DNA from: Yuukianura sp. NJ FZ-2021
Taxonomy: Eukaryota
Length of the DNA: 64,000 nt
Direction: 5' to 3'
Assembly: GCA_046563655.1 (NCBI GenBank)
Contig: CM102290.1
Coordinates: forward strand, 4,588,001-4,652,000
Below, one piece after another: positions 4,520-61,219 of this stretch; the stretch's first letter is position 1; each line of letters begins with the position of its first letter. Both the position numbers and the translations under genes were made by a program. The notes beneath the pieces are model-generated. The model was not told the origin of the DNA. It worked only from the letters and a program-made list of their open reading frames with translations, and did not search any database.

Positions 4520-5283
4520 ACTTTAGACGGTAATGAAACTAAACCAACACTGGTAATTTATAAGTGGATAATTGTTCATCCAAGTGAAGTGATCTGCTGA
4601 TCACACAGAGGGTGAACCACTCATGAAGTGGTTCATTTTTCACAGAGCAGGAATTGAGCGTTGTTCTATCCGATTTCTGCGGGGCACGCGTGACGCGTAT
4701 AGAAATAATTAAGTGACCCCACCTGTATTCGCGGGATAAGTTCGTTGAGGTCCCTGTTAATAAATAAATGAATTGATTTCGATAAAGACGGCTACACGCG
4801 GAAATTGCACTGCTAAGTTAAACAGTAAATAATTTTAGAAACTAAAGGAATTTACTTGTCTAACCTGACCTGACGCAGAATCACAATGAGTCAGCGTCTA
4901 AAACCGGCGCTGGGAGGGTGAGCCCACGAATAACCAACCAGAGGTCAGCGGAACAACATACACGAAAAACCGGAAATGACACGTCAAGTCGTCAAGTAAA
5001 ACCAAAGTGTCAAATAAATCTCAAGTTAAACTGTTTCTAACGAAAACAATAGTACAGTCTTATCGCAGAATACGGGGACGGGGAGTTCAAACTAAATTTG
5101 TAGAAATTAATTATGCATCACAAAACCATAAATTGACACAACACCCATCCCAAACACGATAACGAAGGGACACGAACAGAGGAGGAACAAATGCGGTCGT
5201 GATTCCTAATGCATTCCTGTCCTTTTCCGTTTACCTTCACTCCGCCAATGCTTTTGCACAGACGTTTATGAGAGGTGCGGTTG

Positions 5284-5876
5284 TATGGGGGGAGATTTGC
5301 TGATAAACAACAGGATTTATTCCGCAACAGGAATACCAAAAAACGAGCAATTCCTGTTGAGGAGAATCCTGTTGCGTAACTCCTTGACAGTCAATTCCTG
5401 TTGCAAAAAATCCTGACAGTCATTTTCTGTAGCAAAAAATCCTGACTGTGAATTTCTGTTGCGAAAAATCCTGACAGTGAATTTCTGTTGCGAAAAATCC
5501 TGACAGTCATTTTCTGTTGCAAAAAATCCTGACAGTCATTTTCTGTTGCAAAAAATCCTGACAGTGAATTACTGTTGCGAAAAATCCTGGTAGCTAATTT
5601 CTGTTGCGAAAAATCCTGGTAGCTAATTTCTGTTGCGAAAAATCCTGGTAGCTAATTTCTGTTGCGAAAAATCCTGGTAGCTAATTTCTGTTGCGAAAAA
5701 TCCTGGTAGCTAATTTCTGTTGCGAAAAATCCTGGTAGCTAATTTCTGTTGCAAAATTCGAGACGTGTTTTTGACACCAGGAATTGAGGTGTGTTTGTGT
5801 TTGAGGCCGGTATTTTTAGGTATTCCTAGTTAATGTGGAGAATTTCGTAACATTGATCAGCAAATCTCCCCCCATA
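5284..5876 (+). mobile_element. Non-autonomous DNA transposon (MITE-like) with a perfect 21-bp terminal inverted repeat and an internal 29-bp tandem array
   Basis: TATGGGGGGAGATTTGCTGAT (5284-5304) is the exact reverse complement of ATCAGCAAATCTCCCCCCATA (5856-5876). The outer TA/AT may be the target-site duplication. No transposase ORF is present. Confidence 0.8.
5395..5753 (+). repeat. 29-bp tandem repeat array (~12 units), consensus close to TCCTGACAGTGAATTTCTGTTGCGAAAAA / TCCTGGTAGCTAATTTCTGTTGCGAAAAA
   Basis: Direct 29-nt periodicity. About six GACAG-type units are followed by six near-identical GGTAGCTA-type units (5585-5753). There are no spacers. Confidence 0.95.
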
Positions 5877-6290
5877 AATTCCTGGTGTCAAAAACACATC
5901 TCAAATTTTGCAACAGAAATTAGCTACCAGGATTTTTCGCAACAGAAATTCGGTGTCAGGATTTTTTGCAATAGAAAATCCCTGTCAGAATTTTTTGCAA
6001 CAGAAAATCACTGTCAGAATTTCTTGCAACAGAAATTCACTGTCAAGATTTTTTGCAACAGAAAATTTCTGTCAGGATTTTTTGCAACAGAAAATGGGTG
6101 TCAGGATTTTTTGCATCTGAAAATGGTTGTCAGGATTTTTTACATCAGAAAACGGCTGTCAGGATTTTTTGCAACAGGAATTCACTATCACGATTTACGC
6201 CACAGGATTCTCCGCAATAGGAATTCCTCATTTGTTGGCATTCCTGTTGCGGAGAAAATTCTGTTGTTTATCAGCAAATCTCCCCTCATA
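5877..6290 (-). mobile_element. Second, inverted and truncated copy of the same 29-bp-repeat TIR element
   Basis: 5877 onward (AATTCCTGGTGTCAAAAACACATCTCAAATTTTGCAACAGAAATTAGCTACCAGG) is the reverse complement of ~5730-5785. It ends at 6290 with ...GTTGTTTATCAGCAAATCTCCCCTCATA, matching the left end of copy 1. Its ~10 repeat units are more diverged. Confidence 0.8.
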
Positions 6291-6976
6291 GATTGGTAGC
6301 TAATTTGAATGGTTCAAATTTTTGTAGTTATGAGTTGATCGCCCAGCTATGCAGCGGTGGGTGAAAGTGTCGTGTTTCCTTTCTCCTGTAGAACCCTTAC
6401 TCCTGCCGAGAAATGAAAAACCCTCCAATTCCTCTTTCCTCCGGTAAACACCACACAGCACTAAAATCAGCCGTCGCCGTCAATTTATTTTGGGATTTGA
6501 ATTAAGCTTTCGTAATTATTGCTGAAGAATGGTTAATTAATTACGTCGGTGCCAATCTGTCAATCACGGGAAGAGGAGTAAAACAAGTTGTAGCGCTACC
6601 TTTATTTGTGATGAGTTAGTAGTTGGTGGCACGCACTGTAAGAAACAATAGAAATGGGAAAATGAAGAAAGTGAATTTTCTCTTTTCGCTCTGTCCTGTC
6701 AAACGTCAAAGTCATTATTGTTGTAATTGACCCTTACGAGCAATGCGGGCATCGTGATTAGCTAGAATTCGTTAAACACTCGTCGAACCAAGAAACGTAA
6801 ATAAGTAAGTACGTTTTCGTTTGCTGGCGTTTCGACCTACTTTTAAGGTAATTTGTACCATTGTACGGTACAATTTGTACCTAGGCTTTCAGACTAAAGG
6901 TTTCCGTGTCTTTAATATTGTATTAAATATATACATAGATTTTATTCTGGGTACACAGGTTTATTTCGTCATCAAA

Positions 6977-9900: not shown

Positions 9901-12900
9901 ACCAGACATGGGAGAAGACGCAGAAAAAAGTAGTCTGTACTTAAGACTGTTCAAATTGGTTTTTGGATCTGTGAGTCTATTTCCTGCTGAGAATGAACAA
10001 ATGTTGAAACCACATTTACGGGAAATCGTGAACAGGTAATAATCTGAAATAATATAATAAAATACATTTTTCTATTTAACTTATTCCTACTCTACTTACA
10101 AGGTCTATGGATTTGGCTCTAAATGCCAAGGATCCTTACAACTACTTTTTGCTTCTGCGTGCTCTGTTTCGATCCATTGGAGGTGGAAGTCACGATCTTT
10201 TGTACCAGGAGTTCCTGCCTCTTCTTCCGAGTCTCTTGCAAGGTATAAATTCATCAATTAAATTAGTGTACTCAACTATTGATATTGTGAAACATGTATG
10301 TTTTAGGTCTCAACAGTTTGCAAAGTGGGTTACACAAGCAACATATGAAGGATCTGTTTGTTGAATTGTGCCTTACGGTTCCAGTTCGACTGAGTAGTCT
10401 CCTTCCATACTTGCCAATGCTAATGGATCCCTTAGTTTCTGCACTGAATGGATCTCCAACTCTAGTGAGCCAAGGACTAAGAACTCTTGAACTCTGCGTC
10501 GACAACCTTCAACCTGAATTCCTATATGAACACATTCAACCAGTCCGCACAGAATTGATGCAAGCACTTTGGAGAACACTGAGAAATCCAGTTGATTCTA
10601 CTGCTATTGTGGCCTACAGGTGACAAAACAATGTTATTTCTCTAGTAACTTTACAAGTAGCGAAGACGAACAGCGTATACGTAATAAGGATGAAACGATG
10701 AAAGGCGATTAGTTGCTCAAGGATAACTTATTAATGTTTCATTGTTATAATTGTAACAGAATACTTGGGAAATTCGGTGGAAGTAATCGCAAAATGTTGA
10801 TGGAGCCACAAAAGCTTGAATACGGAGATAAAACTTGTCAAGGCCCTCAAATTCAAATGTTCTTTCAAGACCATAAGGCCTCCGTTACTCTCCCGATTGA
10901 AAAGATCGTTGAAACAGCATATAACACACTGAAAACACCTACTACCGAACTTCATTACAAGAAACATGCGTGGCACTTCCTGAAGTCTTACCTTGCGTCG
11001 AGCATGTTAACTAGCGACGATCCAAACGTTGTCAACAAAGTCATCCTTCATCCCACCATGCATCAACAAGACGTTACGAGTGTTACGGTATTCAAACATA
11101 TGGATGAGAAGTCAAGGACTATCCATGCAACAGCCCTTAGCGGAGTCTGTATTGCATGTGCTACGAAAGAACTCAAACCTGAAGCTTATACATTCCTAGT
11201 GGACATAATGCGTCACTACGCCTTGGTTGCTGTTGCGCAACAAGTGGGGCCCATTGTCGCCGTCAAATGTCATGGAATGGACCCGTATGTGGTGTTTGAT
11301 GCCGTTACTATTGTGCTAGCTGGAGAAGACAGAGAATTTGAGCAGTATGTTTTCTTCGGCCTCTCCATTCTGATGAACGCAATAGTCAGCCTGGTTGGAA
11401 CTACGGAAAGAGCATGTTCGCTGCCAATGATAGAATATCTTATTGAGAACGTATGTGCTTTGTGCTACGAAAGAGCTTGGTATACGAAGATGGGTGGTTG
11501 CAATGCTATCGACTTTCTGCTGGACCATATGTCTTCGAAATGGGTGCTACAACATTACATCAATATCCTAAAGTCAATGTTGTTTGTTCTTACGGATTTG
11601 AGTGGGGAAGTCTCCAGTGGAACCGTTGAAGCTGCCAAGAACAATCTGGAGAAAATACTGGGAATTTGTGTCTCTATTACCGAACCTCATCTTATAGCCC
11701 TAAGAGACTCAACGCTAGCATCAGTCACTGTGGAGTTTGTTAGACATTTAACAAGTTCTGTTACGAACGTTCGTGAACAATCGGTGAACAACTTGACCCT
11801 CTTGGCAGAACTTCAAGGAAAATCAATCTCAGACATTATTCAGCCACACATGGCTGTAATAGCGGATATGATTCCTCCAAAGAAGCATTCTATACGACAC
11901 CAGCCACTTCAGGCACAACTTGGAATTTTGGATGGAAACAGCTTTTGCCTTTATTATGCTCCCACGCTCTTTACAATTGACTTTAGTCTTCCGGAACACC
12001 GGAGTTTTATTCCAGAAATTGTTGGAATTTGTGAAAGTGACGATGTTACTCTGTCCAAGTACCCGTGCTACAAAAATGTATTGAATTTGTTCCCTGTTCG
12101 CATTGCCATTTTGAAGGTATTGGGATGCGTCGTAGCCCCTTCACCTTTAAGGGAGAAAATCATAGCTCTTTTTCTAAAATCACTGGCAAATTCCAATGAA
12201 GAGTTACAAGAGGCAGCGTTTGAGTCTATGAGAAAGTTCATGCGACAAAACGAAGTAGAAGATGAACTGGTAAGAAAGTTTTTCCATTTCCAATACTCTA
12301 TTCTCCATATTATTTTTGTGTTTCTTTTTTCCAATCAGATCAATCAATCGATGAGACCAGTTCTCGCTTCACTGACAAACCTCAAGTCAGTGACATTGGA
12401 AGGTTTGCGTCATGCCGCGTATCTTTATCAACTTGCTCCAGAAGGAAACATCAAATTGTGGGATGCACTGATTCAAGTCTTGAGAAAATTTTTGGAAGGA
12501 GCTCTACAAAACCATAGCAAAACACCGAACAAGAATGGGTTTCACGAATTCAAAATTGCTATTGCCATAGTGGATCATTTCGAACTATTGACCGACGAAG
12601 CAGACGCGGTGCAACGGAAGTTTCTGGAATCAGTTTGTAAACTATGTTTACAGGCCGAGAAGGCATTGTCTCTACATAAAGGGTCTCCACTGCGCCCAAA
12701 TTTAATGAAGTATTTGTCTAAGTTGCCACAGGAGTACATCCATCAAGTATTCGAAACATATTTGGCACATCCGGAATGGAACAGTTTCTTTTTGTACTTC
12801 TTAAAACAACCAATTGCTACCAGCTTGAGGGAGAAATTGGTCCAAAATCCGGCATACATCCTTCACTGCTTGAGCATAATGCAGCATCCCACCAATCCCT

Positions 12901-15900
12901 CCACGATGATGAATTACACTGACACGGAGCTAGCAGAAATTCAGTTCATGGGCGTCAAGTCCGCATACATTCTCAGTCGCCATTATGAAGAGGAAATCCT
13001 GAATGACATTGGATTATTCGAAGCCCTAAAACTTCTTTGGGTGACTCCAGGTTATCAGCAGGGAGTTCGCAATAACACTTGGGAAGTGGATATCAAGACA
13101 TGGAAGGAACCAATTTATGTCTGCAAATTGCTTCTTATGTACTGCAAAAGGAATCCCGACGATATTGATTCACTGTTCCTACTACTGTTGGCTTTTTGTG
13201 GAAAACCATTATCGCATTACCAGGTAATTGTGTTGCGTTTTTCGTTTATTATTGTTAAACAGATCATAACAGATTACTAACTAGATATTTTGTTATCGTT
13301 CTCTTGCAGTTTTTAAAAGAATTTCTTGAAACTACCGTGACCATTAATTTCTCAATTCCGAGGAAACGTCAACTGTTTCTTCGATTTGTGGAAGTTTTCG
13401 GAGAGGAAAACTACTCCTTGGAGTTGAAAGCCAAAATTATCCAGTACTTGCTAATTCCGATCATGGCAAATTGTTTCGATCAAGGTCAGGGTGATGAATT
13501 TGTGGGTTCCTCACCGCTACCGGACGTTGACAGCCCTAACAACATTGTCAGCATCCTCTTGTCAAAGGTACTACCAATTATAAACCCAAGTCTGGAGTTT
13601 AATGAAATTTGATGTGAATTAAATGGCTTTCAATTGTATTTTCAGGTAATTGATGCAGATAATCCAATTGCTCAGGATGACAACGTGCGCATTATTCTTT
13701 GTCAATTATCCTGCCTTCTCGTCGACGTTGCTTCGGCCCACATCCATGACGCTTCAAATAAAAAACAAGGGAACAAGCTCAGACGCTTGATGACGTTTGC
13801 TTGGCCATGCCTTCTGTCAAAAGCATGTGTGGACTCCAGTACAAAGTACTATGGGCATTTGCTCCTATCACACATCATCGCCAAGTTCGCTATTCACAAG
13901 AGGATTGTGCTTCAAGTCTTTCATAGTTTGCTGAAAGCTTCTGTTATGGAAGCCAAGAGTGTAATTAAACAGGCACTGGAAATTATTACACCAGCACTCC
14001 CGCTACGAATGGAAGACGGAAACACAATGTTGATTCATTGGACGAAAAAGATATTGCTGGAAGAAGGCCATTCCTTGGCACAACTGACGCATATTTTGCA
14101 GTTGATCGTACGACACTGGAAAGTTTATTTCCCCGTAAGACTCTTACTTATCACGCATATTATCAGTGCAATCCAGCGCCTTGGGTTTACGCCATCCAGT
14201 ACGTTTGAACATCGAAGACTTGCTGTGGAACTGTCAGAAGTTATCATCAAATGGGAACTAGAAAGAATCAAAATAGAAGGAGAAGCGGTTACATCAATGT
14301 CTCCATCTCCACACGTCGGTAAAGTTGAGCCAGAGAAATCCTTGGAAAGAGGGCATACTGACGCTGTGGTGAACTTCCTTCTGCGAATCGCCTGTCAAGT
14401 TAATGATGCCACTCCAACTCCTGGATCTCCTGGGGAAATTCTGTCCAGAAGATGCGTTGCTCTTCTCAAAACAGTCCTCAAGCCGAACATTTGGCCAAAT
14501 TGTGATTTGAAACTAGGCTGGTTTGACAAACTGTTTCTCACACTGGAAAATCCACAAGCAAATATTCAAAATATTTGTACTGCTCTGGATTTGCTGACGT
14601 TCATTACTGGAATTTTGACTAAAGACCAAGTTTTGGAGCAATTCAAAAGTTTACAGAAAGGAATCTCTATTTGTACGTCGAGCCAAAATGGAAAGGTAAT
14701 ACATACTTTTTGTTTTTGCTATACCATAAATAATAATAACGACTTTTTCCATACAATTTGATTAAGTAAGTTGTTTACTATCGGGTTATTTTAGTCCACG
14801 CTCATCATGTTCATAAACATTACATTTCGTGTTTACAGGTTATCCGTGCTGTTCACAATTTGATGACAAAGTTAATGGCAATATATCCGACTGATTATCC
14901 TACTGGAAGCTCTGCAACAGGAAAATGTGAAGAATTAGACCATTTGTATTCACAAGTCAGCAAGGTTAGTAATAGGTTAATTTTTGTTAGTAATCGAACG
15001 TGCTAGGTTGTGTTTTATAATTTTACTTATCTATTTCTACTTCTTTCTACAGGTGGTTTTCGACGCATTAGCGAACTATGAGAAGCTTACATCGCCTACG
15101 CCATCATTACTTTTCGGGCCGCTGATGATGCTTAAATCAGCTTGTACCGCAAATCCATGCTACATCGACCGAATAATTACTGCCTTCATGAAAGTTTTGC
15201 AAAAGCTGTGTCGGGAACATTTGGCAACAGGAAGTCCAGACGCTCAAGGTAAAACCTCCCTTTGGTGTGCTTGCTGGTTTTACGCTTTATAAACCTTTGA
15301 GCTTTACATTTTAGTTGGAACGGATCTGCTAATTCTAAGTATGGACCTCGTCAAAAACCGTGTCGGTGTGATGGGGGTGGAAATGAGAAAAGCATTCATT
15401 GGAACCGTATTGGTTAGTCTCATTGAGAAAACAACCGACTCGAAAGTGATGCAAGGTATTGTGAAAATGTTGGAAGAGTGGGTCAAAAACAAATCTCCAA
15501 TCGTCATCAACCAGGGGCCAAGTAGTCGTGAAAAGTCCATCTTGTTGGTGAAAATGATGCAGAATGTAGAGAAGAGATTCCCAACTGACACTGAGCTCAT
15601 TGGACAATTTTTGGAATTGGTCAACTTCATTTACCGGGACGACCATTTGAAGGGTACTGAACTCAATGCAAAGTTGGAACCAGCCTTCCTCTCCGGTCTT
15701 CGATGCCCTCAGAGTTCAATCCGAAAAAAGTTCTTTGAAGTATTTGACAGCTCCATTCGTAAGAGACTCCATGACCGTCTGATGTACATTATGTGTAGTC
15801 AAAATTGGGAAGCGATGGGGCCACACTACTGGATTAAGCAGTGCATTGAACTCCTCTTCAGCACTGTTGCAGGTATGAATTTCGCCTTCTAATTGTTGTT

Positions 15901-18900
15901 CAGTATTGGTCGATTTACCATTTTTTTTCTTTTAATTTTCCTTTAGATGTGGATATTCAAATCGTTCCAGTGGAACTTGCACTCCCCGGCGTTGTTTCCG
16001 TCTTTCATTATTTCGAACCATCTTCTAGGCAAGGCTTCCTTAATTCGCCATCGCCTGCAAATGACATGGAAGTTGATCTCTCTGCCGTGCAGGAGGTGGA
16101 GAAGGATTTGGATTCGCTTCGGAAGACTCCAGAGGATGATGTACAGGATCTAACTTCATTGCTGGCCAGAATTGACGAGTTTTTCAAAAGGCGCTGGGAG
16201 GATGCACTCTACCCTATCGAAAACTCTAAAGTATTTTTGATCAGGTAAAGCGTTTGCATTGAACTCTGGTAATTTGCGATACGTTTTCAATTACGCAAGT
16301 TTCAAATGAAGTGAACTTCAATTGATTTTTGTTGTACAAGCAACTTATTTCAATTAAAAATATTTTCAGAGACCGAGATTTTAGTTCGCGTGTGCGTAAT
16401 ACGAAGCTACCAAACATTATTGCGTCATTGATACAACTGTGTCACTGTGACACTAGTCTTGCAGAAAAGGTTTGGGTAACATTCCTTCCTAGAGCTTGGA
16501 AGATATTCAGTGAAAAGCATCAACTGGTAAGCCAAATTACTATTTTGGTATGCAGACGAGGGTATTTTTTAAAATAGGAAATTGAATGTATTTAATATTG
16601 TTTTTAGGCAGTGGCAAACGAAATGGTTCCATTCCTGTGCAGTGGCGTCCACGTCGTGCAAAAGGATTGTATACCAAGTGCTCTGAACACATTTGCAGAA
16701 GCTGTTTCTCAATGTGTACCTTCAGTACCCATGAAGCCGTAATATCAATACTCGATCTGTTGTTGTTATTTTTATAAAAGATCTTATTCTTTTAACTTTT
16801 TCTAATTTAACCTTTGATTGTGTTTTTATAGGGTGGTTTGGTTTTACCTTGCAAGGAATCATAATTTATGGCACCGAGCTTGTCTTGCTTTGGAACAATC
16901 CATTTTTGAAGGAAACTCACATCAACTTAAAACGAAGAAGGAGCAGACTGACTGCTACGAATTTGAACCATCGACAGCCCATTCTGCTACCCCACCTACC
17001 CAAAACTTGGACGTAATGGATGCTCTCTCCGATTTATATCAAAACTTAAGGGAAGAAGATCTATGGGCTGGACTTTGGCAGCGACGAGCGAAATACGTCG
17101 AAACGAACATTGCAATAGCACTGCTTAATCAGGGTTTCTATGAGAATGCCCAAACTACCTTTGAGCTTGCCATGGAAAAAGCCAAAGAAGATTTTGGAGA
17201 TGAGTTATGCCCGGGTACTATTTTTCCAGAATGCAGACTATGGGAGGAAAATTGGCTCAAGTGAGTACTATAACTAGCTTAAAATGCAGCCTGAAGCTAA
17301 TAATTATTCCAATTTAGGTGCTCCAAGGAGCTCAACCAATGGAATATTGTCCAAGAGTATTCGGGATCCGGAGAAGGACAAAATCCAATTTTGGAATTGG
17401 ATGCGATTTGGCGCACTGGGAATTGGAATGAGGTGAAGAATTTACTTGGTCAGGTTGAAACGTCGTGTCCGAAGGACTTTGCTTGGAAAATCCACTTGTA
17501 CCGTGGATACCATGCAATTTGTTCGACTGATGAACAGAATTTGGGTGTGGTGGATCGATATGTGGATTCTGCAAGCCAGATAAGCATCAAAGACTGGAGA
17601 AGACTTCCGCACATTGTCTCCAACGCTCATGTGCCAATACTGCAAGCTGCGCAACAGGTTCTAGTAATAGGAATTAGGTCATTCCGAGGAGGTATTAATT
17701 TGTGAACTAACTGATTCTTTGTACAATGCCATTAGATTGTAGAACTACACGAAGCAATGGGAATTCACCAAGGGTTTATTCAAGGACGACCAAATACGGT
17801 TCACGACATGAAAGCTGTCGTGAAGACTTGGAGGAACCGACTCCCTTGTATTTCAGATGATTTGAGTCATTGGGGAGATATTTTCACATGGCGACAACAA
17901 CACTACAACTTCATCTCAAGTCAGTTTGATTCTCAAGTATCCACAGAAGCTACCGTTGTAGGAGGATCTCAAGGAATGCTGGGTATCCATGCTTCGGCAC
18001 AGGTAAAGATTCTATTACATAAAATTCTTATAGAAACACAATAACTAAGGAAGTTTTTTGTTATAGGCTTTTTGTCATTTCGGAAAAATCGCTAGAAAAC
18101 AGCATCTCCACTCTGTTGCACTGGCGTCTTTGTCAAAGATTTACACAATTCCAAGTATACCTGTCGTAGATTGTTTCCAGAAAATCAAGCAGCAAGTCAA
18201 GTGTTATATTCTTCAGGCTCAGACGCTGGGAAAGAATGAACTTCAAGAAGCCCTGGAAATTGTGGAATCAACGAATTTGAAATTCTTCTCCAAGGAAATG
18301 ACTTCTGAATTCTTCACTTTTAAGGCTTGTCTCCTGGGTCTTATTGGTTTGTGTTGAACTTTTTATTATTTTGGCTCGTACATCGTTGCAAGATTCCTTA
18401 ATGCAACTTAAATTTGTCATAGGTCGTTCTGATGAGGCGAGCAAATGCTTCTCGGCGTCTTGTCAATTGAATGATAACTTGATGAAATGCTGGGGTTTTT
18501 GGGGTGATTACTTAGAATCATTTTATGTTCGAGATCCTGCTCGGAATGTCAGTATGGGAATTGCCGCCATGACAGCATATATGCAAGCTTGTCGGAACCA
18601 AGGGGAAGTGAAGGCTAGAAAATATATCGCCAAGGTAGAACTTTATCATATGGACTTTCTGAAACTAATTTTAACGAGGAATCAGCAAAATAACAGAATC
18701 TTCATATTATTACAGATTCTTTGGCTCCTGACTTATGACGACGAAAGGGGCACTTACGCAGACATTGTAGACAAATACTCCAATTTTGTGCCACCAATCC
18801 AGTGGTTGCCTTGGGTGCCGCAACTTCTGACGCTACTAGTGCGTCATGACGGCAAAATGGTCATCAATCTTCTCAATGCAGTTGGCCGAATGTACCCTCA

Positions 18901-21693
18901 AGCTGTGTACTTTCCTATACGTACGCTCTACTTGACCTTGAAAGTTGAACAACGAGAGAAAGTTCGGAATGCCGAATTGGCTGCCGCCGCTTCGTCTTCC
19001 GCTAATGCAGCCGCTACGGGTGAAGGCGGTTCGTTTGAGCAAGATGGTACTCCAGCGACCAAGGCGCCGAATCCTGCAGAAGGCCAAGCTATCAAAGCAA
19101 CACCGAGTATGTGGAGATGCTCCAGAATTATGCACATGCAACGAGATCTTCATCCTACGGTTCTTTCTAGTTTGGAAGGGATTGTGGATCAAGTGAGACA
19201 ATTCTTTTACTCCCGTGTTTTTTATGTATTGTTGGCAAATAGTTTCACATTCCATATTGATAATCTTAGATTGTTTGGTTTCGTGAAAACTGGTATGAAG
19301 AAGTACTCCGACAGCTCAAAATCGGTCTCGCCAAATGTTACGCAATTGCTTTCGAGAATCGCGCAAGCGTTGCAGAAACGGCCATTACGCCGCAACTTCA
19401 GAACTTTGTGAGGAAACTTGTCTCTACATTTGGACTTGGTAAGTGTAGCATTTATTGTATGTAGGCAATTCCTCTCATACAGAGTGTAACATGAAATTGT
19501 ATTTTTTAGCGAGTAATCTGTCAGCCATGGGCTCAGGATCTTCCACATTTGAAGTACTACTGCGTCGCTCTACTCTTCAAGATCCAGCAGTTCAACAACT
19601 CAAACTCAAATTCACATCAGACTTTGATACAACTGGACCTATCGCTATCAAACTGCATAATCTCATCATCAGTCTGCGAAAATGGATAAAAATCTTAGAA
19701 GCGAAGACGAAACAATATTCAAAGTAAGTTTCGGAAGAATAGGTCATATCAACTTCTCTGTCATGATTGTCGAGTGCTTTTCATTCAAACGCATTATCAT
19801 GGTTTCGTTTTCAGGTCAATTTTAATGGACGATCGCTTCCGATTTCTGCAGAATTTTAGCAGCCAGATGACCGAGATTGAGCTTCCAGGAGAGTTTCTAA
19901 TTCCTAAGGTAAAAACGTTTTTTTAAACATTATACATACTGACGTATTTATTGCGCGATGATGGAAAAATTTAAGCCTTTAGTTCCAAGGTTTTGTAACA
20001 AGCATTTGCGCTACCTGTTTTAATTAGTAGGCAACCTTATGCCGGCAATTCTACGGGGCAGTGTGAGCTGCTGATAAGATCTGATCCAACCGTACTAAAT
20101 AGTATTGGTTTGTTCCCAAATACATTCCATCATCTATTTAACGTCTGTTTGTTGTTGTTTTTCACAGCACGCGCATTATTATGTCAAGATTGCAAGGTTC
20201 CAACCCAGGGTTGAAGTAGTGCAGAAGCACAATACGTCTGCACGGAGAATATTTATACGCGGTCACAACGGTAAGGTGTACTCCTACTTGATTGTCAATG
20301 ACTCGGGACTTACCGACGCCAGGAGAGAAGAGCGAGTGATGCAAATGCTGCGGATGATGAACCACTACTTGGCACGCCAAAAGGTTGCATGAACTTTGTA
20401 TTTACGAATATATTCTCGGATAGTTTGCTAATTTTGGCTTTTTGTAACGTCCAACAGAGTACTTCGAAGAAAAACTTGAGTTTCACTGTTCCGAAAGTCG
20501 TCGCAGTGTCCCCGCAGATGCGATTAGTTGAGGACAACCCTTCGTCCCTGTCGCTTCTCGATGTTTTTAAACATAGCTGTTCGAAACGAGGAGTTGAATA
20601 TGATGCTGCAATTACTCGATACTATGAGAAGATTGAAACTGTTCAGGTAAATATACATTTTGTAAAACACTTTTGGCACATTGTCGAATAGTGATAACTT
20701 CACAAATTGCTTGGCTTTTCCTATGCTTCTAGACAAGGGGATCACAAGTGAGTCACCAAGTTCTTCGGGAAATCTTGAGAGGCATTCAATCAAACACAGT
20801 TCCAAGAACAATGATGAAAGAGTGGGCATTGAATACATTTCTGACACCTTCCGACTACTGGATGTTTCGCAAAACTGTATGAAAAATCATATCTCAAATG
20901 CGACGATCCGAGTTTGTCTGAGTTTATGCATATGTCGAATTTGAAATTGAGTTTGGTTTCAGTTTACATATCAACTGGCCCTGATTGACTTTGCTGAGTA
21001 TGCGTTTCACTTGACTCGACTCAATCCGGAAATGATGTACCTTCACCAAGATTCTGGCCTTGTTAACATCTCGTATTTCAAATTTGAGTTACATGATGTC
21101 TCAGGTGAATTTACATGATTTAAAAAAACGAAACTTGAAAATTTCATCAGTTCTAATTTTCTGTTTCACAGGTGAATTGGAGTCCAATCGACCTGTTCCG
21201 TTTCGTCTAACCCCGAACATATCCGAATTTATCACTCCGTTTGGAGTGAACGGGCAAATTGTGTCTAGTATGATTTCTGTTGCAAGATGTCTGGTGTATC
21301 CTCACTATAAAGTGCAGGCTATTTTACGCGCAATACTTCGAGACGAAGTAATCGCCTGGCTATTGAAAAAACAAAATGATAGAGAAATATTGAACGTTGT
21401 TTCTGGAACGGAGGAAATGGTGCTGCCTGAATCTGACTCGGAAGTCATCATAAACCGAGTGACAAAGTCGGTAGTGTCCATGATGAATCGAATTCAATTA
21501 CTTTCAACGTTTGATGGAGTAGAGAGCAAGGTAATGATTTCATTTTAATTATTATATGAGCTAAATTTCCATCAACTTCAACGATAATCAACTCAACTTC
21601 TATTATTTTGTCTAGGCGAACACATTGGTAGCAGCGGCTAGTAGCCATGATAATTTGTGTCGTATGGATCCAAGTTGGCATCCCTGGCTCTGA
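6977..21693 (+). CDS. TRRAP: Transformation/transcription domain-associated protein (Tra1/Nipped-A; PIKK pseudokinase scaffold of SAGA and TIP60); many short introns
   Basis: ATG at 6977 (CAAAATG) after an acceptor at 6958. Conserved segments: [70 protein letters not shown] domain ([24 protein letters not shown]), pseudokinase ([17 protein letters not shown] and NISYF in place of the DRH/DFG motifs; VPFRLTPNI) and FATC end [14 protein letters not shown] (TGA 21691-21693). Confidence 0.97.
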
Positions 21694-31400: not shown

Positions 31401-34400
31401 AAAGTTCAATTGAATCCTGGATGAGAAGGCGTAACTTTCCTTAAGTCGGAAACAATAGTTTGGTTGGAGTAATTAATAATAATTACAACCCGTCAAAATA
31501 ACAACTACCTTCCCAAATACTTCCCTCCTCTTCATAATTTAGTCTGAGGAATAGTCTACTAGTGGAATGAAATGCTACAAAGTGACTTTTCACCAGACAT
31601 GTCTGCAACTTTTTTTTGTTCGTGTCCAAGGTGCAGAAGTATCCGTCACAAGCGATCCTAAACTTACGCTAACATTGGCCCGCGGCGATTCCAAAGCTTA
31701 CACATTTCAGCCAGTGTTATATCGCCCGAGTATTTTATTTAAAAGAGTGCAGTGGCCTGAAAAGTGCCGGCGGGGTTTCATTTCCCCCGGGGTTTTTTCA
31801 ATTTTCCGGTACCCAGTGTACTCTGACTTGCTTGCTGGGCTGCATCCAGACCAAATTGGCAATAATAATAGAGTAGTTATGAATGACAGGTTTCATCATC
31901 TTATGCACTGGGAATTCGTCCAGGAAATTGGGCTTCTTGGGATTCCACAGAGAGCAGCAATTTGATGAATTGGGGGCCGTGGCTGTTTTGATCCGCCTCC
32001 TACGCCATCTCATTGGTGGATTTAGGTGGTGTGAGCAGTTGATGTGTTTTGGCATTGTCATAGTAAGTTGGTTCCGCTACTTTCCCCTTGGTCTTCCTAA
32101 AGTCTATTGTCACAATTCAATTGTTCATTGCCTACCTCACACTCACAGTAGCAGTGAGTCTGCAAGGATGATGACTCCATTCCACGACCTTGTTTTTATG
32201 TCTACCTCCTTGGCATTGACGCAACGCTCTCATCCACTTTTACTAACCGTATCTCATCCAAAAATCAACGTTTCAAACCGTAAAACTTCAAATACAACCG
32301 GCTTCATTATTTAATCAACTTTAGACTTGCTCTCAACTTTAAAACGCTCCTTGGGTCGTTAGCAGGCGAAGGTTAAATGACGTTCGTCCAAGAAACGGCT
32401 CCAGTTGGACACTGGAGCTCAAAAATGACATTACCATTGCTCAAAAACCGGAAAAAAGTGACAATGGACAATTAATTTAGTTGGCGTTCTTTTAGAAACA
32501 ATAAAAATTTAGTGGGACTCTTAAAATGGCAAAGTAAGCCAAAGATTTCATGGGAATTGTAATTAAAATGCCCAAACCCAGACTATAGTGTTAATCGAAT
32601 TCAAATTCAAATTATTTTAGACTGGCTAAACTTATTTAAATATTAATTTTTAGGATAACGAAAATCGAAAATGTCAAATAGAGTTGACTCACAAGGTGAC
32701 ACCGCTATCATAAGCGTTTGTTTGCGTAAGCGTGCGGATTGTGAGCTGAATACTTAGAACCTAAATTATTGGCAAGTGATCAAACCGCATAGGTTATTTT
32801 TAGGTTCAATTCAAATTGGAATGGTGTAAATTTGATACATTTGGGACAAGGTTACAAATGAGTTTGGTAGGTGCCAATTGCCTTTTTTTCTAAACAATTT
32901 TTTTTTCGTTTTTCTAAAAAAAAACTATTGAACAGTTATAGGTAGGATGAAGTCAGTGTACCATAAAAGATTGTCCGCAAGCTACTTAACTTTTGTATTT
33001 ATTAAGTAGCGAAGCTACTTTATACATCGACCTTGTCTGTCTGGCCGTCCGTCCGTCCGTCCGTCCGTCCGTCCGTCTCCGGCAATTATCTCGGAAACGG
33101 TTCAACATTTCCGGGATCTGTTTTCACCGGTGGACACCCAGTGACCCGGTGATGTTCACTATTGAATATCAACCCGGTGGGTCAACTCCTTCCGGGTCAA
33201 AGGTCAAGGTCAACCGGTTTCATCTCCGGTAACGTGAAAAATGCTCTCTACAAAAGTTGTTCATCTCGTCGAGATCAATAACTTTTGTGTACATCACATG
33301 ACCCCAAGTGACCTCCTTCCGGGTCAAAGGTCAACTTTTTCAGTTTAACGTTCTCCCATTGGGGGAAGTGGTGGAACCCACCCCTCCCCCGGGTGAACCC
33401 ATCTCCACTCCCCCGGGTGAACCCATCTCCACTCCCCCGGGTGAACCCATCTCCACTCCCCAGGGGGAACCCATCTCCATTCCCCCGGGGGAACTCATCT
33501 CCACTCCCCCCGGGGAACCCATAATCCGCAGGGGGACCCATCTCCACTCCCCCGAGGGGAACCCCACCCCCGCTCCCTCTCCCGGGGGGGGGGCCGGAAA
33601 GGAGGTAGAACCAACTATCACTTCCTCAGGGGGGGAGGGGGTGAACCCACCCCCACTCCCCCTGGGGGGGGCGCTATCTTCGCTACTTACGTACACCGGT
33701 TTACAACCGTTTATTAGATGGAAAATTATGCGTTGAGAGTTCAAGAGTTACCAAAGATTAAGTAGGCAACAAGTTACGTTTCCGACATGAACTCATCATC
33801 ATGCCATCGTACGATCCACAAAATTACAAATGGGAAGGACGTCTACTAATCCATTGTAAATATTCTGAATGGATGACGAACTCCGCCTACGACACGTCAG
33901 CCAAAAAATCACAAGATGGAAAGCTTACATACATTACGAGAAAATTACTGACGATGCTGCAGGATCGGATGGTTTGAGTGACAATGGTGTGGGCGTGGGG
34001 CTGGATAAAATGTTTGACGAAGCTGAATTATTATCAGAATCTGTCGGATGATGTGCAACTGCAACGTACAACTCTTGCCGTTTAATTTGCACATTTTACA
34101 CTATGAGGCATAATAATGACAATTTTGACGTAGTCGTATGACTTACCTGTCAGTCAACGTCAGCCTCACAAGACTTGTTTGATTTAGCTAAACTATACCC
34201 TCATAAACCCATCCCTAAAGTTATGTGCGTACTTACTTCTGACAAAACTGACTAATCTCTAGAAAATATTTCTCAAGAATTGAACAAAATTGGCCAATTT
34301 GTGCAAAATGAAATCATGGAAGCCAAAATGGAAAGCGAGTGTGGGCAAGGATCGAAGGACGCGTCCCAGAAGTGCGCAGTTTCAAAAAAAAATCAGAATA

Positions 34401-38300: not shown

Positions 38301-39253
38301 TTTAGCACTGCACTTCATATTTTTTTTTCTGGCAACACTCCGTTTTGCGGCAAGCAAAAATCTAATAATGGGGATTTAAGCGTTGAAAAGATCTGAAATG
38401 CTTCAGCAAATACATGACAAATTATTCATCGAAATAGTGTGACGCAGAAGTGATAAACTGGAAAAATCAATACAAAACTGATTGCTCCAATTTCAATTCA
38501 ATGTTTTCAAAACAAAAAATAATAATATTTTTTTGAGTTGTTGATATTTGTAACTTGGCAAAATATTTGGATTCAACTGCGAAATGAATAGTATTCGTTT
38601 TTGATAGTTTCATAGACAGACAAAACACTATTCCCGGAAAAATGTCACCAAAGTAAAAAATTGATTATTCGCTATTTGTCCACAAAAAAAGATGAAAAAA
38701 TCATTTTAGAGTTTCAGTGAAATATTGGAGTGCTGCCAGTATTTTTTTTCAAAGGGTTATGCGAAGAGGCAGCTACGAGATCTTTCAAGTTAAAGGAATA
38801 TACAGGCACCGTGGATTGGACTCCCATTAAAATATTTTCAGCGAAATCTTTGTTAAAAAAACGGGATTAACAAATGAAAAGTGTTCTAAAACTGTGTCTA
38901 TGTGATAATAATTGTGATTGAATTAGATATAGAAGCCTCGAATTGTGATGTTTTACAATGTAAAAAGAAAAAGAAACGCGCAAAGTTTGTTAGATGTTTG
39001 ATTCTAGGCAATTCTGCGCTTAAATCACAACAGCAGCAACGCGTGCATAAGTGATCTAAGTTAATTAATCTCAAACATATGGGATTTTAGGTCCTCTAGT
39101 AATTGCAAACGGAGGCTGGATATCGGTATCCTTTGGGTTTCGTACCATACAACAACGCACGAATCTATTTTCTTCTCGCAGTAGATCATATTAGAGGTTG
39201 AAAAATATTTCGACAGGGATTTTGACTCGGTGATGTCGCTTCCATGTGGGTTC

Positions 39254-39479
39254 GCCAGGGTCACCGCCAAGTGTGCCAGAAGAATGTGAAGAGACGACGT
39301 AGGAAGGCAAAGCACGCCAGAAACGATTGACATAGCTGAGTAACTGCCGTAGACTGTGGAGGTTCAACTATTACTGGGTCGATTTCTGGAATGACCCAGG
39401 GGTCAACGTCTGGACTTCCTTGTGTCGTTCTTGGACGATTGATAGTAAATGGTTTAGCAGTTTGGTGGCTGACCCTGGC
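39254..39479 (-). promoter_or_regulatory. Candidate structured cis-regulatory RNA element immediately 3' of the YPEL stop codon
   Basis: At least five mutually compatible complementary segment pairs found by eye (see findings). The region is GC-richer than the downstream AT-rich UTR. Function is inferred only. Confidence 0.55.
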
Positions 39480-39485
39480 CTTTTC

Positions 39486-41104
39486 TCAGTCCCACTGATT
39501 CTCCTTCACCATATGAGCTAGTTCAATAATATACTTCCCCTCTTTGTACTTTTGACTAGATTCAAAGGCGTGCTCCTAGGAAGGAAAAAAATCGATTCTT
39601 TTAATTTTGAATGTGTTAATTCTTTCAAAGAAACCCAAGTGGATTGTAACATTGAACAAACTTACGTATTTCCAGCCAAGTGTTGTTCGACAGCATTCAC
39701 AGTAAATGTCTGCAACGGCATGAAGTCCAGTTAGCAACACTCGTTCTTCCGCGGGTCCACAACCAACATTTACTCTGCAATAAAAAGAAGTATACAAATT
39801 GTTTATTTTACAACAACACATTCTTATCTCCCATATAGAATAAAATTTAATTAAAATTAAGTAAATCCAATACAATAAATCGGCTGAAACCGATTTATTG
39901 CAATTCGATAGAAAAGTTGCAGGGCGGGGTAAACGTTTCTCTCCTGAAAACCCGAAATTAAAATAATTGTTAATAATTTTTATGGCTCCTAGGTGGAGTT
40001 AACGTTAGAATACTGAAGAAAGAGTAACGAAAAAGCATAGAAAGACAATAGATAATTAGAATCTTAACTAAAGTTTACCCACACCAATTTACTCACACTG
40101 AATTGAAGAGGTAAGCCCTTCCCTGACTTCCTTGAAATGACTGTAGAGAAACAACAAAGACAACAATTAGTCCGACGTTCCCAGCAGCTGAATAATCGAG
40201 TTACCGAATACGGCAATTCTTTGTTTTCGACTTCACTATTCTGCATTCATCGCAATATCCTATGCATTTTCCATTTCATCATGCATTGTGAATTTCAAAA
40301 ATCGAAATTTGAGGCAAGGCATGCATGAACAATTTAACAGTAGGGGTGGAACAGTTTTCGTACATTTCAGAGTTTCCTATTCCTGACTCTCCATTCGATT
40401 TCTTCAGGTTACAATTTCAAATGAGTGTGGAAGCTGAATTAGCTTAGACCAGCACAAAAACAAAAACATAAACGTCAATATCCAAACTTCTTGAGACTAC
40501 AGTTATGGTGAAACGGATCCGTGTTAAATGGGAGTAAGCGGTTTAGAGGTTCACTTTTTGCAAGTCAAAGAAGCAACGCAGTTGATGGTCAGGAATAATT
40601 GATGACACTTTGCAAATCCAAAAGCTGCATTCAATTCCAGGCAATGTCAGCATTATTTCATAGCTCTCGAGGGCACGTTCATGCAGTTTGGGATCAAAAT
40701 AACGGCCTTAAAGTAAAGCTCAAATTTCGTTGCTATGTCCTCAATCCTTCTACAGATAAAAGTCCAGCTAACTTTGGCACCCATTGGTTCTCAGCTAACA
40801 AAAAATCTGTCTTCCTTGTTATTCTCTCGCTTTGAATTTCTACCCGATTCACGTTTTGATTGTTCTACAGGTTAACAATAAGATATACCAAACTCCTACC
40901 AAATGGAAAAGGAAAGTAATGAAAACTGTTGACAATACTTGTGATTATGCACATAAAAAACAGCACGAACACAGAACTTTAGAGTATTGAACGTTTGTTT
41001 ACCTTTGAAATCAGTTCATCATGATTAGCAAGATGTGCCCGACAATGGACACAAGTATAGTATCTGTGACAATTAGCCAAATAGGCCTGGAACGTCTTGA
41101 CCAT
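39486..41104 (-). CDS. YPEL: Yippee-like protein (YPEL1-4 type zinc-binding protein); 4 coding exons
   Basis: Exons 41104-41003 ([34 protein letters not shown]), 40140-40097 ([15 protein letters not shown]), 39774-39666 ([36 protein letters not shown]) and 39575-39486 ([29 protein letters not shown]). Two CxxC motifs; all introns GT-AG. Confidence 0.96.
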
Positions 41105-58526: not shown

Positions 58527-61219
58527 ATGGTTCATAAATGTTGCATATCATCGTGCGGAATGAGTGTTCGGGTAACCGGATGTAAAGGGCTCTCCTTTCA
58601 CACATTTCCAGTCAAAGAACCGAATCGCGAAAAATGGTTGCAAGCAGTACTGCCACATGTGGACAAGCCCGAGATGTTCAGAATTGTACAAGGATATACA
58701 AGGATTTGTTCGAGGCATTTTAAAAAGAAGGACTATTCATTAGATTCCAGGAAAAGAGCCCGACTTAGCTCCAGTTAGTTGATTTTTTTAAGTTGGTAAA
58801 AGGTGAAAATGCTTTTTATACATGACTTTGAATTTTGATAGATGCAGTACCTTCAGGGTTTCCTGGAAGGGATATCAAAGATGCAATCCAACCGATTCGG
58901 TTAGAGAAAACAAAAGCTGAGCGTGGTGACAATTCAACCAAGAATTCTGTCGTGACCATCTGTCGTGTAGAGAAACATCCATCCCGAGCAGTGTTAGCGG
59001 AACCAACGCTGCCTGGCGAGAAGGAGGTTATACCGACGACAAGTAACCAAACCATAGGAGCTACCGAGGACCAACAATCGCAGCAAGTGTCGGAAGACGA
59101 TACAGCCTCCTCAACATTTTCCAGCCAGGAAGAATGTGGTATCAGCCGTCACCATACAAATACAAAACGTAAATCACCTGATAAAATAAGAAAACGCAGA
59201 AGACACCGTGTTTCAATGCCAGTCCCGTTAAGTTCGTCCAAGAAAAGATCCTCCGTAACAGAGGACTTAAATATCGAAGGGGTAGGAGACGCATTGGCAG
59301 AAATTAATCTTTCAGCGTTTATGTCGAAGTCTTCAGATCTGATACGTGGCAGTCCAAACGATCCCCAACTTGGAAAGTCTCCTCCTTTTCAAACAATCAA
59401 AGTGGAACCACTTTTTCTACGACCTTTAGAACCAGCCGTGAAACCAAAATCCCATGTTAGCAACTCCACTACTCCTATATTACGGCCAAAGCTGAACGAA
59501 GGAACATTTCTCGGTACTTCCAGCCCGAAGAAAGAATGTTTGGCACAAGCAAATTTCGAGCATGACCTGCTGATGTCTATCCATGCTGTGAGCATTGGAG
59601 CCAATGAAACACCAGATCCACAGTCCCCACGTAGCGCAACTCCGACTCGAGAGGTGGATTCTGTGTCGCTGAACAACTTTTTGTCATCCACGGATGACGA
59701 TGATTCTTTTGTTTCAAGTCATCTTCAAGATCTTTATGCTGACTTGGTCAACGGTGGAGCCAGTCTCTCTCTTGAAGATTCTACGGCAACTATATTTGAT
59801 AGTCAACTTTTAATTGACGCTCTTCAGGGTGTTGCAGAAGACTTAGCAGGAGATGCAAGCATAGATCAATTGGCTCGTAATCTTGATGACTCCTTCCTTA
59901 ATGATGCCTTAGCGCCGCCTTCAATTTTAGGAATTGATGATATTCCAATATCGAATCTTGTTTCTTTCACGTCAGCGCTGCCGGATCTCGACAGTAAAGC
60001 TTTTGACGCAACAACTCTACTGCAATCCATCAATAGCAATGAATGTCCTAGTGATGGGAAGGCGGAAGCAGGTACGACCAATCTATATCCTCATATTTTT
60101 GTAACTTAGTGTAACACAGTACGTATGTACTTAGTTTGTTAATCAAATCCTTTCGACTTGTGTTTTGTGTTAGTACCTACCACGTCAGGCGTCAAATCCA
60201 TTTCTGATCCAGACTCTTCGCAGAAACGCATTACTGAAGAATCCGAGTCCTCTCCCGAATTTGACGAACAAGTAACTCCAACCCGTTCTCGCAAGAAATT
60301 AAGCCAGAGAGAGAAAGCAGCAGGGAGCTTCTCGGTGGAAAGGTTTCGTGATTCTGACAAAGATATTGAATACTATACAGGATTTCAAACGTTTGAAAAA
60401 TTTAACTCTTTTTTCTCATCAATCGAATCCTACGCTGAGAATTTGAAGGTTACGGATATGGTGTACGGTGTGGCAAATTTGGGACTTAATGTATCTCCAG
60501 AGGGGTCGGCGCCAGTAACAGGCGATGCGGCTCTAGACGTTGCCGTCGAAAATATTTCAAGTGCTAACCAAGAACCAAAACGTCGCTTGAGTCAAGGAAG
60601 ATCAATGTCAAGAATGGACGAAATGTTCATGACTATTATAAGACTACGTCGGAAAATCCCCGAGAAAGTTGTTGGTCACATGTTCTGCATATCTCAGCCA
60701 TCGGTGTCCCGAATTATTCGTGCCTGGACAATGTTATTGTCCAGAATACTTTCGTTGGGAAATGAAGGAAAATGTACAGCGTCTAAAACAAATAAGCGGG
60801 ATTATCTCCCCGGAAGCATCGAAAATACCGCCGACGCATCAAGTTCCATGGCCACCACCGAATCTCCGAATCAGAGTCACATCAAAACTGATGATATTCC
60901 AGCCTCATTTCGACATCTTTTTCAAAGTGAATTAGCACAGAGCATCATATCCAGCGGAACTGTGACTTTGAATTCGAGAAAAACTTGTAGTTCGACGAAG
61001 TGTCCAAATACCTCACGGTCCAAGCGTCCTAAGAAAGAGAAGGTAGCTGTTGCCGTGAGTGCAGACGTAGTACCGCCTTCATTGTCGTCCCAAGACGTGC
61101 CCATTGTCAACGATAAATTTAGCACCATCTTAATACCACCTTCCATCGAATCTGAAGCGGGTAACGAAGGAAGACATACAGATTCAGAAGTTGTTGCTCC
61201 TGTTGACAGCATCATGTGA
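58527..61219 (+). CDS. THAP zinc-finger protein with a C-terminal PIF/Harbinger/ISL2EU-transposase-type HTH and no DDE domain (~840 aa, 3 coding exons)
   Basis: Phase-1 spliced exons 58527-58773, 58842-60071 and 60174-61219. THAP signature MVHKCCISSC...SFHTFP...REKWLQAV...RICSRHF...NAVP. Exon 3 has DIEYYTGF...DEMFMTIIRLRR...VGHMFCISQPSVSRIIRAW, typical of the HTH region that precedes DDE_Tnp_4 transposase domains. Confidence 0.85.

Follow-up and report, generated by a model that had tools for sequence, protein, structure and literature searches.

In alphaviruses, RNA stems that begin 7-8 nt 3' of a UGA stop codon raise readthrough up to ~10-fold, and conserved stems have been predicted for headcase (hdc) and kelch (Firth 2011, PMC3159437); for dfr, both the distance from the stop and the stability of the stem are reported to matter (PMC13170385). 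Candidates have also been collected by their coding signature, and the "preliminary list" of 187 PhyloCSF-based readthrough candidates in Jungreis 2016 (PMC5100048, Supplemental Data S1) includes Anopheles gambiae AGAP011563-RA, an orthologue of CG15309. That gene, also named dYPEL3, is the sole fly homologue of YPEL1-4; YPEL proteins, whose functions are described as poorly defined, show conservation from yeast to humans (PMC7286299). Here, we analyzed the stop codon of a Yippee-like (YPEL) gene in a 64,000-nt stretch of contig CM102290.1 (assembly GCA_046563655.1, Yuukianura sp. NJ FZ-2021), referred to as "the window." A first reading of its letters (the original prediction) had proposed that a long nested RNA stem just past the UGA stop stimulates readthrough into a 74-codon in-frame extension.

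On balance we lean, if narrowly, toward a reading in which the UGA of the YPEL gene is at times decoded by programmed readthrough, for which the stem is the likeliest cis-acting stimulator. The candidacy of YPEL for readthrough is already listed for Anopheles; new here is a longer, differently built extension in other animals, with a helix whose arms enclose the second open reading frame (ORF). Our full-text literature searches found no paper discussing translational readthrough of YPEL, and none on AGAP011563; the main text of a 2026 preprint on neuronal readthrough mentions neither YPEL nor CG15309.

The YPEL gene and the frame past its stop

The gene lies on the minus strand at a eukaryotic, AT-rich locus. 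It has four exons and is of the YPEL1-4 type, with introns of 862, 322, and 90 nt, all GT-AG, and a spliced coding sequence (CDS) of 114 codons with zero internal stops. Every position named by the original prediction, that is, the UGA, its spacer, both arms of the stem, the 74-codon frame, and the second UGA within the 3' arm, proved correct when the window was read again. The parts of the gene and of its extension are as follows.

41003..41104, minus strand: coding part of YPEL exon 1, 34 codons, with the ATG at 41104-41102
40097..40140, minus strand: YPEL exon 2, 14 codons plus 2 nt, with donor GTGAGT and acceptor CTACAG
39666..39774, minus strand: YPEL exon 3, 1 nt plus 36 codons
39489..39575, minus strand: YPEL exon 4, the final 29 codons, with the C-terminus ...MVKENQWD
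39486..39488, minus strand: first stop, UGA, the proposed readthrough codon, in the context UGA-GAA-AAG; UGA in all five DNA sequences compared
39264..39485, minus strand: in-frame extension (second ORF), 74 codons, open in all five DNA sequences and with a coding signature
39384..39404, minus strand: conserved peptide block DPWVIPE, extension residues 28-34, with strong codon periodicity
39264..39335, minus strand: predicted amphipathic C-terminal helix of the extension, residues 51-74, with two invariant Cys
39261..39263, minus strand: second stop, UGA, within the 3' arm of the stem and within ...UGGCGGUGACCC... in all five DNA sequences

Our comparisons draw on nine distinct sequences, namely, five of DNA (the window and the loci L001 to L004) and four known as protein only (P0001, P0002, P0003, and P0005). 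The spliced CDS of the window and the contiguous CDS of L004 encode the same residue at 112 of 114 positions. The 114-residue product of L004 lies above the gathering score of Pfam family PF03226, Yippee-Mis18 (41.1 bits, E 2.2e-10; cut-off, 26.6). The window exons, scanned singly, stay below that cut-off (exon 3, 14.6 bits, E 0.037), and exons 1 and 4, each scanned alone against Pfam, gave zero matches. In L004, the complete CDS of 114 codons runs on through the UGA into the extension as a single unspliced, colinear piece; L004:492-833 is without the three introns of the window, and neither contig end carries a poly(A). The contig is either transcript-derived (cDNA-like) or an intron-free gene.

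The 29-residue product of exon 4 is identical across L001 to L004, and in this last exon (39489-39575 and its counterparts in the four loci) third positions differ at only 5 to 14 of 29 sites. Such sparse third-position change, in a small sample, could be codon bias or an extra constraint on the mRNA upstream of a leaky stop. The extension is unlike the exon in this respect, with proportions of synonymous difference (pS) of 0.59 to 0.85.

Taken by itself, the window is only suggestive. Of mononucleotide shuffles of its sequence, 3.1% yield an open frame of 74 codons, in keeping with the few percent that the original prediction had conceded, and the chance probability of each of the five open frames is 1.6 to 4.2%. 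The G+C content of the segment is ~0.49, versus 0.30 to 0.40 around it. It is because comparison with relatives shows both the closing stem and the open frame to be conserved that the evidence rises above chance.

A whole-library HMMER search with the 74 residues returned two proteins (E 1.9e-13 and E 4.0e-13) whose alignments span residues 1-74; each opens with the last residues of YPEL, has W where the stop would be, and continues with (D/E)KARV. A profile search added P0003, P0004, and P0005. The stop position appears as W in all of the gene-caller proteins P0001 to P0005; P0004 shares its contig with L001, where both W positions are TGA in the DNA. P0005 has a longer extension, with DRAARV replacing (D/E)KARV after the stop and an insertion ahead of the DPWVIP block. 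A word-indexed search with the extension gave zero candidates among proteins of 57-182 and 365-2000 amino acids, and GTDB genome contigs yielded 28 pattern matches, none of them confirmed, and 0 matches to a 23-nt pattern. Pfam scans of the extension, P0003, and P0005 found no family. The ends of one contig (L003:1-45 and L003:1140-1183) are Illumina adapter sequence, and these outermost bases are not biological.

All five DNA sequences have UGA as the first stop, in the shared context UGA-GA(A/C)-AAG-GCC-AGG-GU, and frame 0 stays open past it for 74, 74, 70, 69, and 68 codons, up to a second stop that is again UGA in every case and lies inside TGGCGGTGACCC. Just one of the ten other sense frames is open, and none of the 15 antisense frames is. 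In a nucleotide alignment made with MAFFT, blind to codons, the lengths of all 18 gap runs are divisible by 3 and 249/249 columns are phase-consistent. Pairwise differences at codon positions 1/2/3 are 0.41/0.29/0.56 over the whole extension, and the mean ratio of nonsynonymous to synonymous proportions of difference (pN/pS) is 0.52 in frame 0 versus 1.11 and 1.53 in the shifted frames. For the closest pair, L003 and L004, pS is 0.73 and pN is 0.12; their nucleotide identity is 89.7% in the last exon, drops to 74.6% in the extension, where gap runs measure 3 and 6, and falls to 52% downstream of it, where they measure 1 and 4 and part of the sequence is L003 adapter.

The signature is uneven along the extension. 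Differences at the three codon positions are 0.24/0.13/0.61 in the DPWVIPE block and 0.44/0.15/0.51 in the C-terminal helix, and the first ~25 codons after the 5' arm (0.52/0.48/0.65) are near-neutral at the residue level, with the frame open and the indels in frame. A protein-coding signature that continues in frame from the stop to the next stop, as sought by Jungreis et al., was found in the five DNA sequences. Judged by these and by the four predicted proteins, the extension clearly appears to evolve as protein in the YPEL frame. The coding-like evolution that the original prediction had proposed to test for past the UGA is present, and the UGA itself has been kept as a stop in every DNA case.

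We consider it very probable that the extension is translated in frame with YPEL. It might be made without passing the stop, through an alternative splice into the extension or from an independent, non-AUG downstream ORF. The near neutrality of the first ~25 codons would suit such a route, and minor isoforms may have escaped a search of public sequencing runs whose sole match lies outside the gene. However, the frame is open, and all indels are multiples of 3, right from the first codon past the UGA; in-frame AUG, GUG, and UUG are all absent from the window extension, and the other sequences have no conserved AUG; L004 runs colinearly from its start codon to the end of the extension; and visual reading of the alignment, which is inspection and not a formal splice-site scan, found no conserved phase-0 acceptor. 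We hold either bypass to be very unlikely.

The helix around the extension

The helix that closes the structure, hereafter the closing stem, is formed by two arms, the first of which is separated from the first UGA by the spacer GAAAAG (39485-39480), directly 3' of that stop.

39462..39479, minus strand: 5' arm of the closing stem, GCCAGGGUCA-G-CC-A-CCAA, starting 6 nt past the UGA
39254..39270, minus strand: 3' arm of the closing stem, UUGG-C-GG-UGACCCUGGC, covering the last two codons, the second stop, and 7 non-coding nt

In the minimum-energy fold of the window, the arms pair over 10+2+4 = 16 bp. The 241-nt segment that contains them has a minimum free energy (MFE) of -72.9 kcal/mol (z = -3.29), and none of 200 dinucleotide shuffles, the control that the original prediction had proposed, folded as well. 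We also scanned all 241-nt intervals of the 64 kb (step, 80 nt; both strands; MFE regressed on composition), of which 67/1594 (4.2%) scored at least as low; the fold of the segment alone is not exceptional.

Conservation singles out the closing stem. It is present in the minimum-energy folds of all five DNA sequences, with 14 to 17 bp and an onset 5-6 nt past the UGA (6 in the window, 5 in L001 to L004), and it persists in all five, with pair probabilities of 0.77 to 1.0, when the folded segment is lengthened by 90 nt upstream and 120 nt downstream. The arm duplexes have energies of -30.6, -23.4, -28.4, -29.6, and -32.2 kcal/mol. Of the cells in the alignment that should be paired, 87.5% are, versus 21 to 45% when the partner is slid by 1-3 columns. 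A stable helix ~5-9 nt 3' of the stop, as in the hdc, kelch, dfr, and alphavirus type, is thus found in each of the five sequences.

The arms also stand out at the nucleotide level. The 5'-arm codons AAG, GCC, and AGG (K, A, R) have frozen synonymous sites in 3 of 3 cases, versus 1 of 7 codons for the same residues elsewhere. At the other end, CGG-UGA-CCCUGG is invariant in the five sequences, and CCCUGGC past the second stop, although non-coding, is kept in all of them (L001 has an additional C), and divergence sets in farther downstream. Two peaks of synonymous-site conservation therefore coincide with the arms, in a small sample of five sequences, and the frozen synonymous sites together with the conserved non-coding CCCUGGC point to nucleotide-level constraint on both.

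The rest of the proposed structure fared differently. The original prediction had described a long nested stem, of which the closing stem is conserved in all five sequences, but the inner helices (ACGAC/GUCGU, AGGAAG/CUUCCU, and others) appear only in the window's own fold. The region between the arms in the window gives a marginal z of -1.88, with 4 of 100 shuffles as good, and the inner regions of the five sequences give -1.88, -0.45, -1.09, +1.23, and -0.51. Because four of these five are no better than shuffles and the inner helices are missing from the consensus structure, we do not count them as a conserved feature.

We rejected a transposon origin of the arms as the inverted repeat of a miniature inverted-repeat transposable element (MITE) or other transposon: the 64 kb contain a single copy of the 18-nt arm even when 3 mismatches are allowed, and the arms are conserved at an orthologous position. 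Rfam gave no family match for the window (scanned whole at the gathering threshold and over 38500-40200 at E<=10) or for L001 to L004 (E<=1).

Could the open frame be a by-product of a purely non-coding, structured element of the 3' untranslated region (3' UTR)? The window alone, with an open frame expected by chance in 3.1% of shuffles and a fold in the top 4.2% of intervals, would fit that view. The relatives do not, since the frame is open in 5/5, gap runs are multiples of 3 in 18/18, third positions are periodic, and pN/pS is 0.52 in frame versus >1 off frame; moreover, outside the arms it is the peptide blocks that are conserved and not the RNA structure. We give this explanation hardly any weight.

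A strong double-stranded element near a stop also raises the possibility of A-to-I editing, and the original prediction had named a substrate of adenosine deaminase acting on RNA (ADAR) as an alternative. Editing would turn UGA into UGG (Trp) in some transcripts, and the extension would be made from the edited mRNA. The conservation of the genomic UGA and the nearby duplex are compatible with this model, and some readthrough candidates have been suggested to be editing cases (Firth 2011, PMC3159437). But the duplex does not extend in conserved form over the first UGA. The A of that stop lies outside the conserved helix, with pairing probabilities of 0.00, 0.40, 0.42, 0.68, and 0.29 in the five sequences and no common partner, and the editing model is weakened because this A has no conserved pairing partner. 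The A that does sit in a perfect duplex belongs to the second stop, past which nothing is conserved beyond the arm. We therefore regard editing as unlikely.

Readthrough and the part played by the stem

Translation of the extension probably proceeds by ordinary readthrough. The YPEL UGA would at some frequency be decoded as a sense codon, most likely by a near-cognate tRNA, with Trp, Cys, or Arg as the residue to be expected at a UGA, and the product would be a second YPEL isoform with ~70 extra residues: a linker, a conserved DPWVIPE-like motif, and, at the C-terminus, a conserved amphipathic helix of 23 residues that contains Cys. When the stop codon occupies the A site, the closing helix would be positioned at the entrance of the mRNA channel of the ribosome, where it may stimulate readthrough in cis.

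Several observations weigh against this reading. The stop context is UGA-G and not the favored UGA-C. Folding of the whole element is uneven, with z of -3.38, -1.87, -4.21, -0.03, and -3.07 in the five sequences, and the RNAalifold consensus, whose covariation term is +1.44, has only two tiny hairpins besides the closing helix. Covariation in the stem, for which the original prediction had proposed a test, is not significant: 7 of the 16 stem pairs are invariant, just one is altered on both sides, and the score of 0.100 (versus 0.096 in shuffles) was reached by 343 of 500 shuffles. Because of this, the case for pairing in the closing stem comes down to conserved complementarity. Ascertainment was limited as well, in that 155 stretches fit the pattern in the metagenome scan, of which 4 were confirmed (L001 to L004) and the 151 others lie outside the comparison; and the W of P0001, P0002, P0003, and P0005 is presumed from the protein sequences to stand for TGA. 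Public sequencing runs gave one metatranscriptome match, which covers 38700-38874 only, outside the gene. Among known cases, the D. melanogaster orthologue was scored "Non-RT" (Jungreis 2016, PMC5100048), and in kelch, deletion of the 3' half of the stem left readthrough unreduced in HEK-293T cells and fly neurons, according to a preprint (10.1101/2020.06.22.165522).

The matching metatranscriptome contig is 209 nt long and 90-95% alike over 38700-38874, where it shows a deletion of 9 nt and has its loose end at position 38874. It probably represents a dispersed repeat rather than a piece of the YPEL transcript.

It is because deletion of the 3' half of kelch stem-loop 1 (SL1) did not change readthrough that we set the chances of the closing stem being a stimulator of readthrough at even. 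Readthrough could be real and the stem not its stimulator, with leakiness set by the invariant post-stop sequence GA[A/C]AAGGCCAGGGU or by a trans-acting factor. The stem would then have another purpose, such as mRNA localization or stability, the binding of a double-stranded-RNA-binding protein, or limiting the entry of ribosomes into the extension. In favor of this are the kelch reporters, which responded to a local stem-loop but not to loss of the long-range stem's 3' half; the lack of covariation in the closing stem; and the position of the invariant 5' arm directly after the stop, where it could work as a sequence motif. The 3' arm speaks against it: including its 7 non-coding nt past the second stop, it is equally conserved and exactly complementary to the 5' arm, and therefore something selects for the pairing. 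Furthermore, the spacing of 5-6 nt is near the 7-8 nt of proven stimulators. We find readthrough without stimulation by the stem rather doubtful, though a serious competitor.

Other ways of decoding the UGA were weighed against programmed readthrough. The first UGA might encode selenocysteine, directed by a selenocysteine insertion sequence (SECIS) in the 3' UTR. An in-frame UGA that is perfectly conserved and followed by coding sequence is what such a gene would have, and UGA-adjacent stem-loops, the selenocysteine redefinition element (SRE) and hymenopteran readthrough element (HRE), are known from selenoprotein genes and from genes derived from them (Mariotti 2015, PMC4561486). Rfam models, however, find no SECIS in the window or in the four loci, with ~3 kb downstream included in L001 and L002; the UGA coincides exactly with the regular C-terminal end of the protein and is not flanked by a Cys-type redox motif; and a SECIS would tend to recode the second UGA too, yet conservation stops there. 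Selenocysteine thus seems highly improbable. A general reassignment of UGA in the organism was likewise rejected, because conservation ends at the second UGA and because frames of 855, 425, and 382 codons stay open with UGA counted as a stop.

Programmed readthrough with the stem as its stimulator admits a more elaborate version, which we think improbable, in which the helix acts as a gate and its rate of refolding relative to ribosome traffic sets the share of the extended isoform. Because the second ORF lies entirely between the arms and ends at a stop within the 3' arm, any ribosome reading through must open the helix. Such a ribosome would melt the helix and hold it open until terminating within the 3' arm, and ribosomes reaching the first UGA meanwhile would meet no structure and terminate. 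If this were true, the isoform ratio would be coupled to the rate at which the mRNA is translated.

For the extension, AlphaFold2, given an alignment of seven sequences, placed no secondary structure in residues 1-50 (predicted local distance difference test [pLDDT], 52-66) and a helix at residues 51-73, with a pLDDT of 93 for residues 61-70. The linker of the extension is poorly conserved and probably disordered. The tail, which the original prediction had called amphipathic, is indeed predicted to be an amphipathic C-terminal helix (hydrophobic moment, 0.31-0.46; mean hydrophobicity, 0.18-0.30), and C52 and C58 of the extension are invariant in all seven sequences. This helix may bind a membrane or a partner. 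If so, a second isoform carrying an amphipathic, Cys-bearing helix would give YPEL another location or partner in the animals that have it, and the long isoform would offer a handle on what YPEL does.

Elsewhere in the window, the following genes and domains were found.

426-1028, minus strand: Nckap1 fragment (E 2.3e-53)
10716-19411, plus strand: Tra1/TRRAP gene with very long exons (Tra1_ring, E 5.1e-139 and 1.4e-99; FAT match sub-threshold)
60146-61219, plus strand: ORF containing an HTH_Tnp_4 domain (E 4.9e-08) of the kind usual in DDE transposases

Self-complementarity in the window is strongest at 5201-6401. There, composition-corrected MFE residuals go down to -7.8 sd (minus strand) and -6.2 sd (plus strand), and an ORF (5820-6299) encodes a repeating peptide unit; the stretch resembles a large inverted or tandem repeat and may be a transposon remnant. 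A G+C-rich island at 33121-33841 (up to 68%, versus ~33% for the genome) is open on both strands and encodes tandem PPGEPIST-like repeats on the plus strand. A large neighboring ORF, compared with a protein atlas, matched only generic HEAT-repeat families.

Comparison with known recoding systems

For the recoding field, the YPEL gene would provide a cleanly conserved cellular case of UGA-G readthrough. Its helix, enclosing the entire extension together with the second stop, is an arrangement easily tested with reporters, and it bears on whether long-range stems such as kelch SL1 matter at all.

The likeness to selenoprotein-related elements is partial. The SRE of selenoprotein N and the HRE of hymenopteran SPS1-UGA, like the YPEL element, are conserved RNA structures that adjoin an in-frame UGA, and structure of the SRE/HRE type is described as promoting SECIS-independent recoding in arthropod genes (Mariotti 2015, PMC4561486). 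The HRE, however, overlaps a UGA in the middle of the CDS of an enzyme (PMC4561486), whereas the YPEL UGA falls outside the helix, at the point where the protein normally ends.

Within the gene family, AGAP011563 shares with the YPEL sequences a UGA that is conserved across the aligned species. The two differ in build: as listed, the Anopheles extension has 26 codons, a TGA-T context, and no RNAz structure flag, whereas the extension here has 68 to 74 codons (more in P0005), a TGA-G context, and a conserved stem. Because the fly orthologue is "Non-RT" and the Anopheles extension is just 26 codons long with TGA-T, the feature is not shared by insect YPEL genes in general.

Headcase, dfr/vvl, and alphavirus nsP3/nsP4 all resemble YPEL in having a stable, phylogenetically conserved structure a few nucleotides 3' of the stop. 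As described, these are local stem-loops or extended hairpins, mostly with compensatory changes, and have been tested by mutation, whereas the YPEL helix is long-range, has an invariant core, and is predicted.

Kelch, as described by Firth 2011 (PMC3159437), is the closest in form, being a cellular gene with a conserved UGA in a context other than UGA-C. In both genes the stem has ~14 bp and a small bulge, beginning 8 nt past the stop in kelch and 5-6 nt past it in YPEL; the enclosed loop, nominally >200 nt in both, measures 268 nt in kelch and about 170-190 nt in YPEL; and each stem showed up as a pair of conservation peaks, at the nucleotide or synonymous level. They differ in their local structure, since in kelch the stem-loop SL2 mattered and deletion of the 3' half of SL1 was neutral (10.1101/2020.06.22.165522), and in YPEL RNAalifold finds no comparable conserved hairpin near the stop. 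They also differ in architecture. The second ORF of kelch is long, and the stem lies well inside it; in YPEL, the unusual feature is that the arms of the predicted helix appear to enclose the entire second ORF, with the second stop held in the 3' arm.

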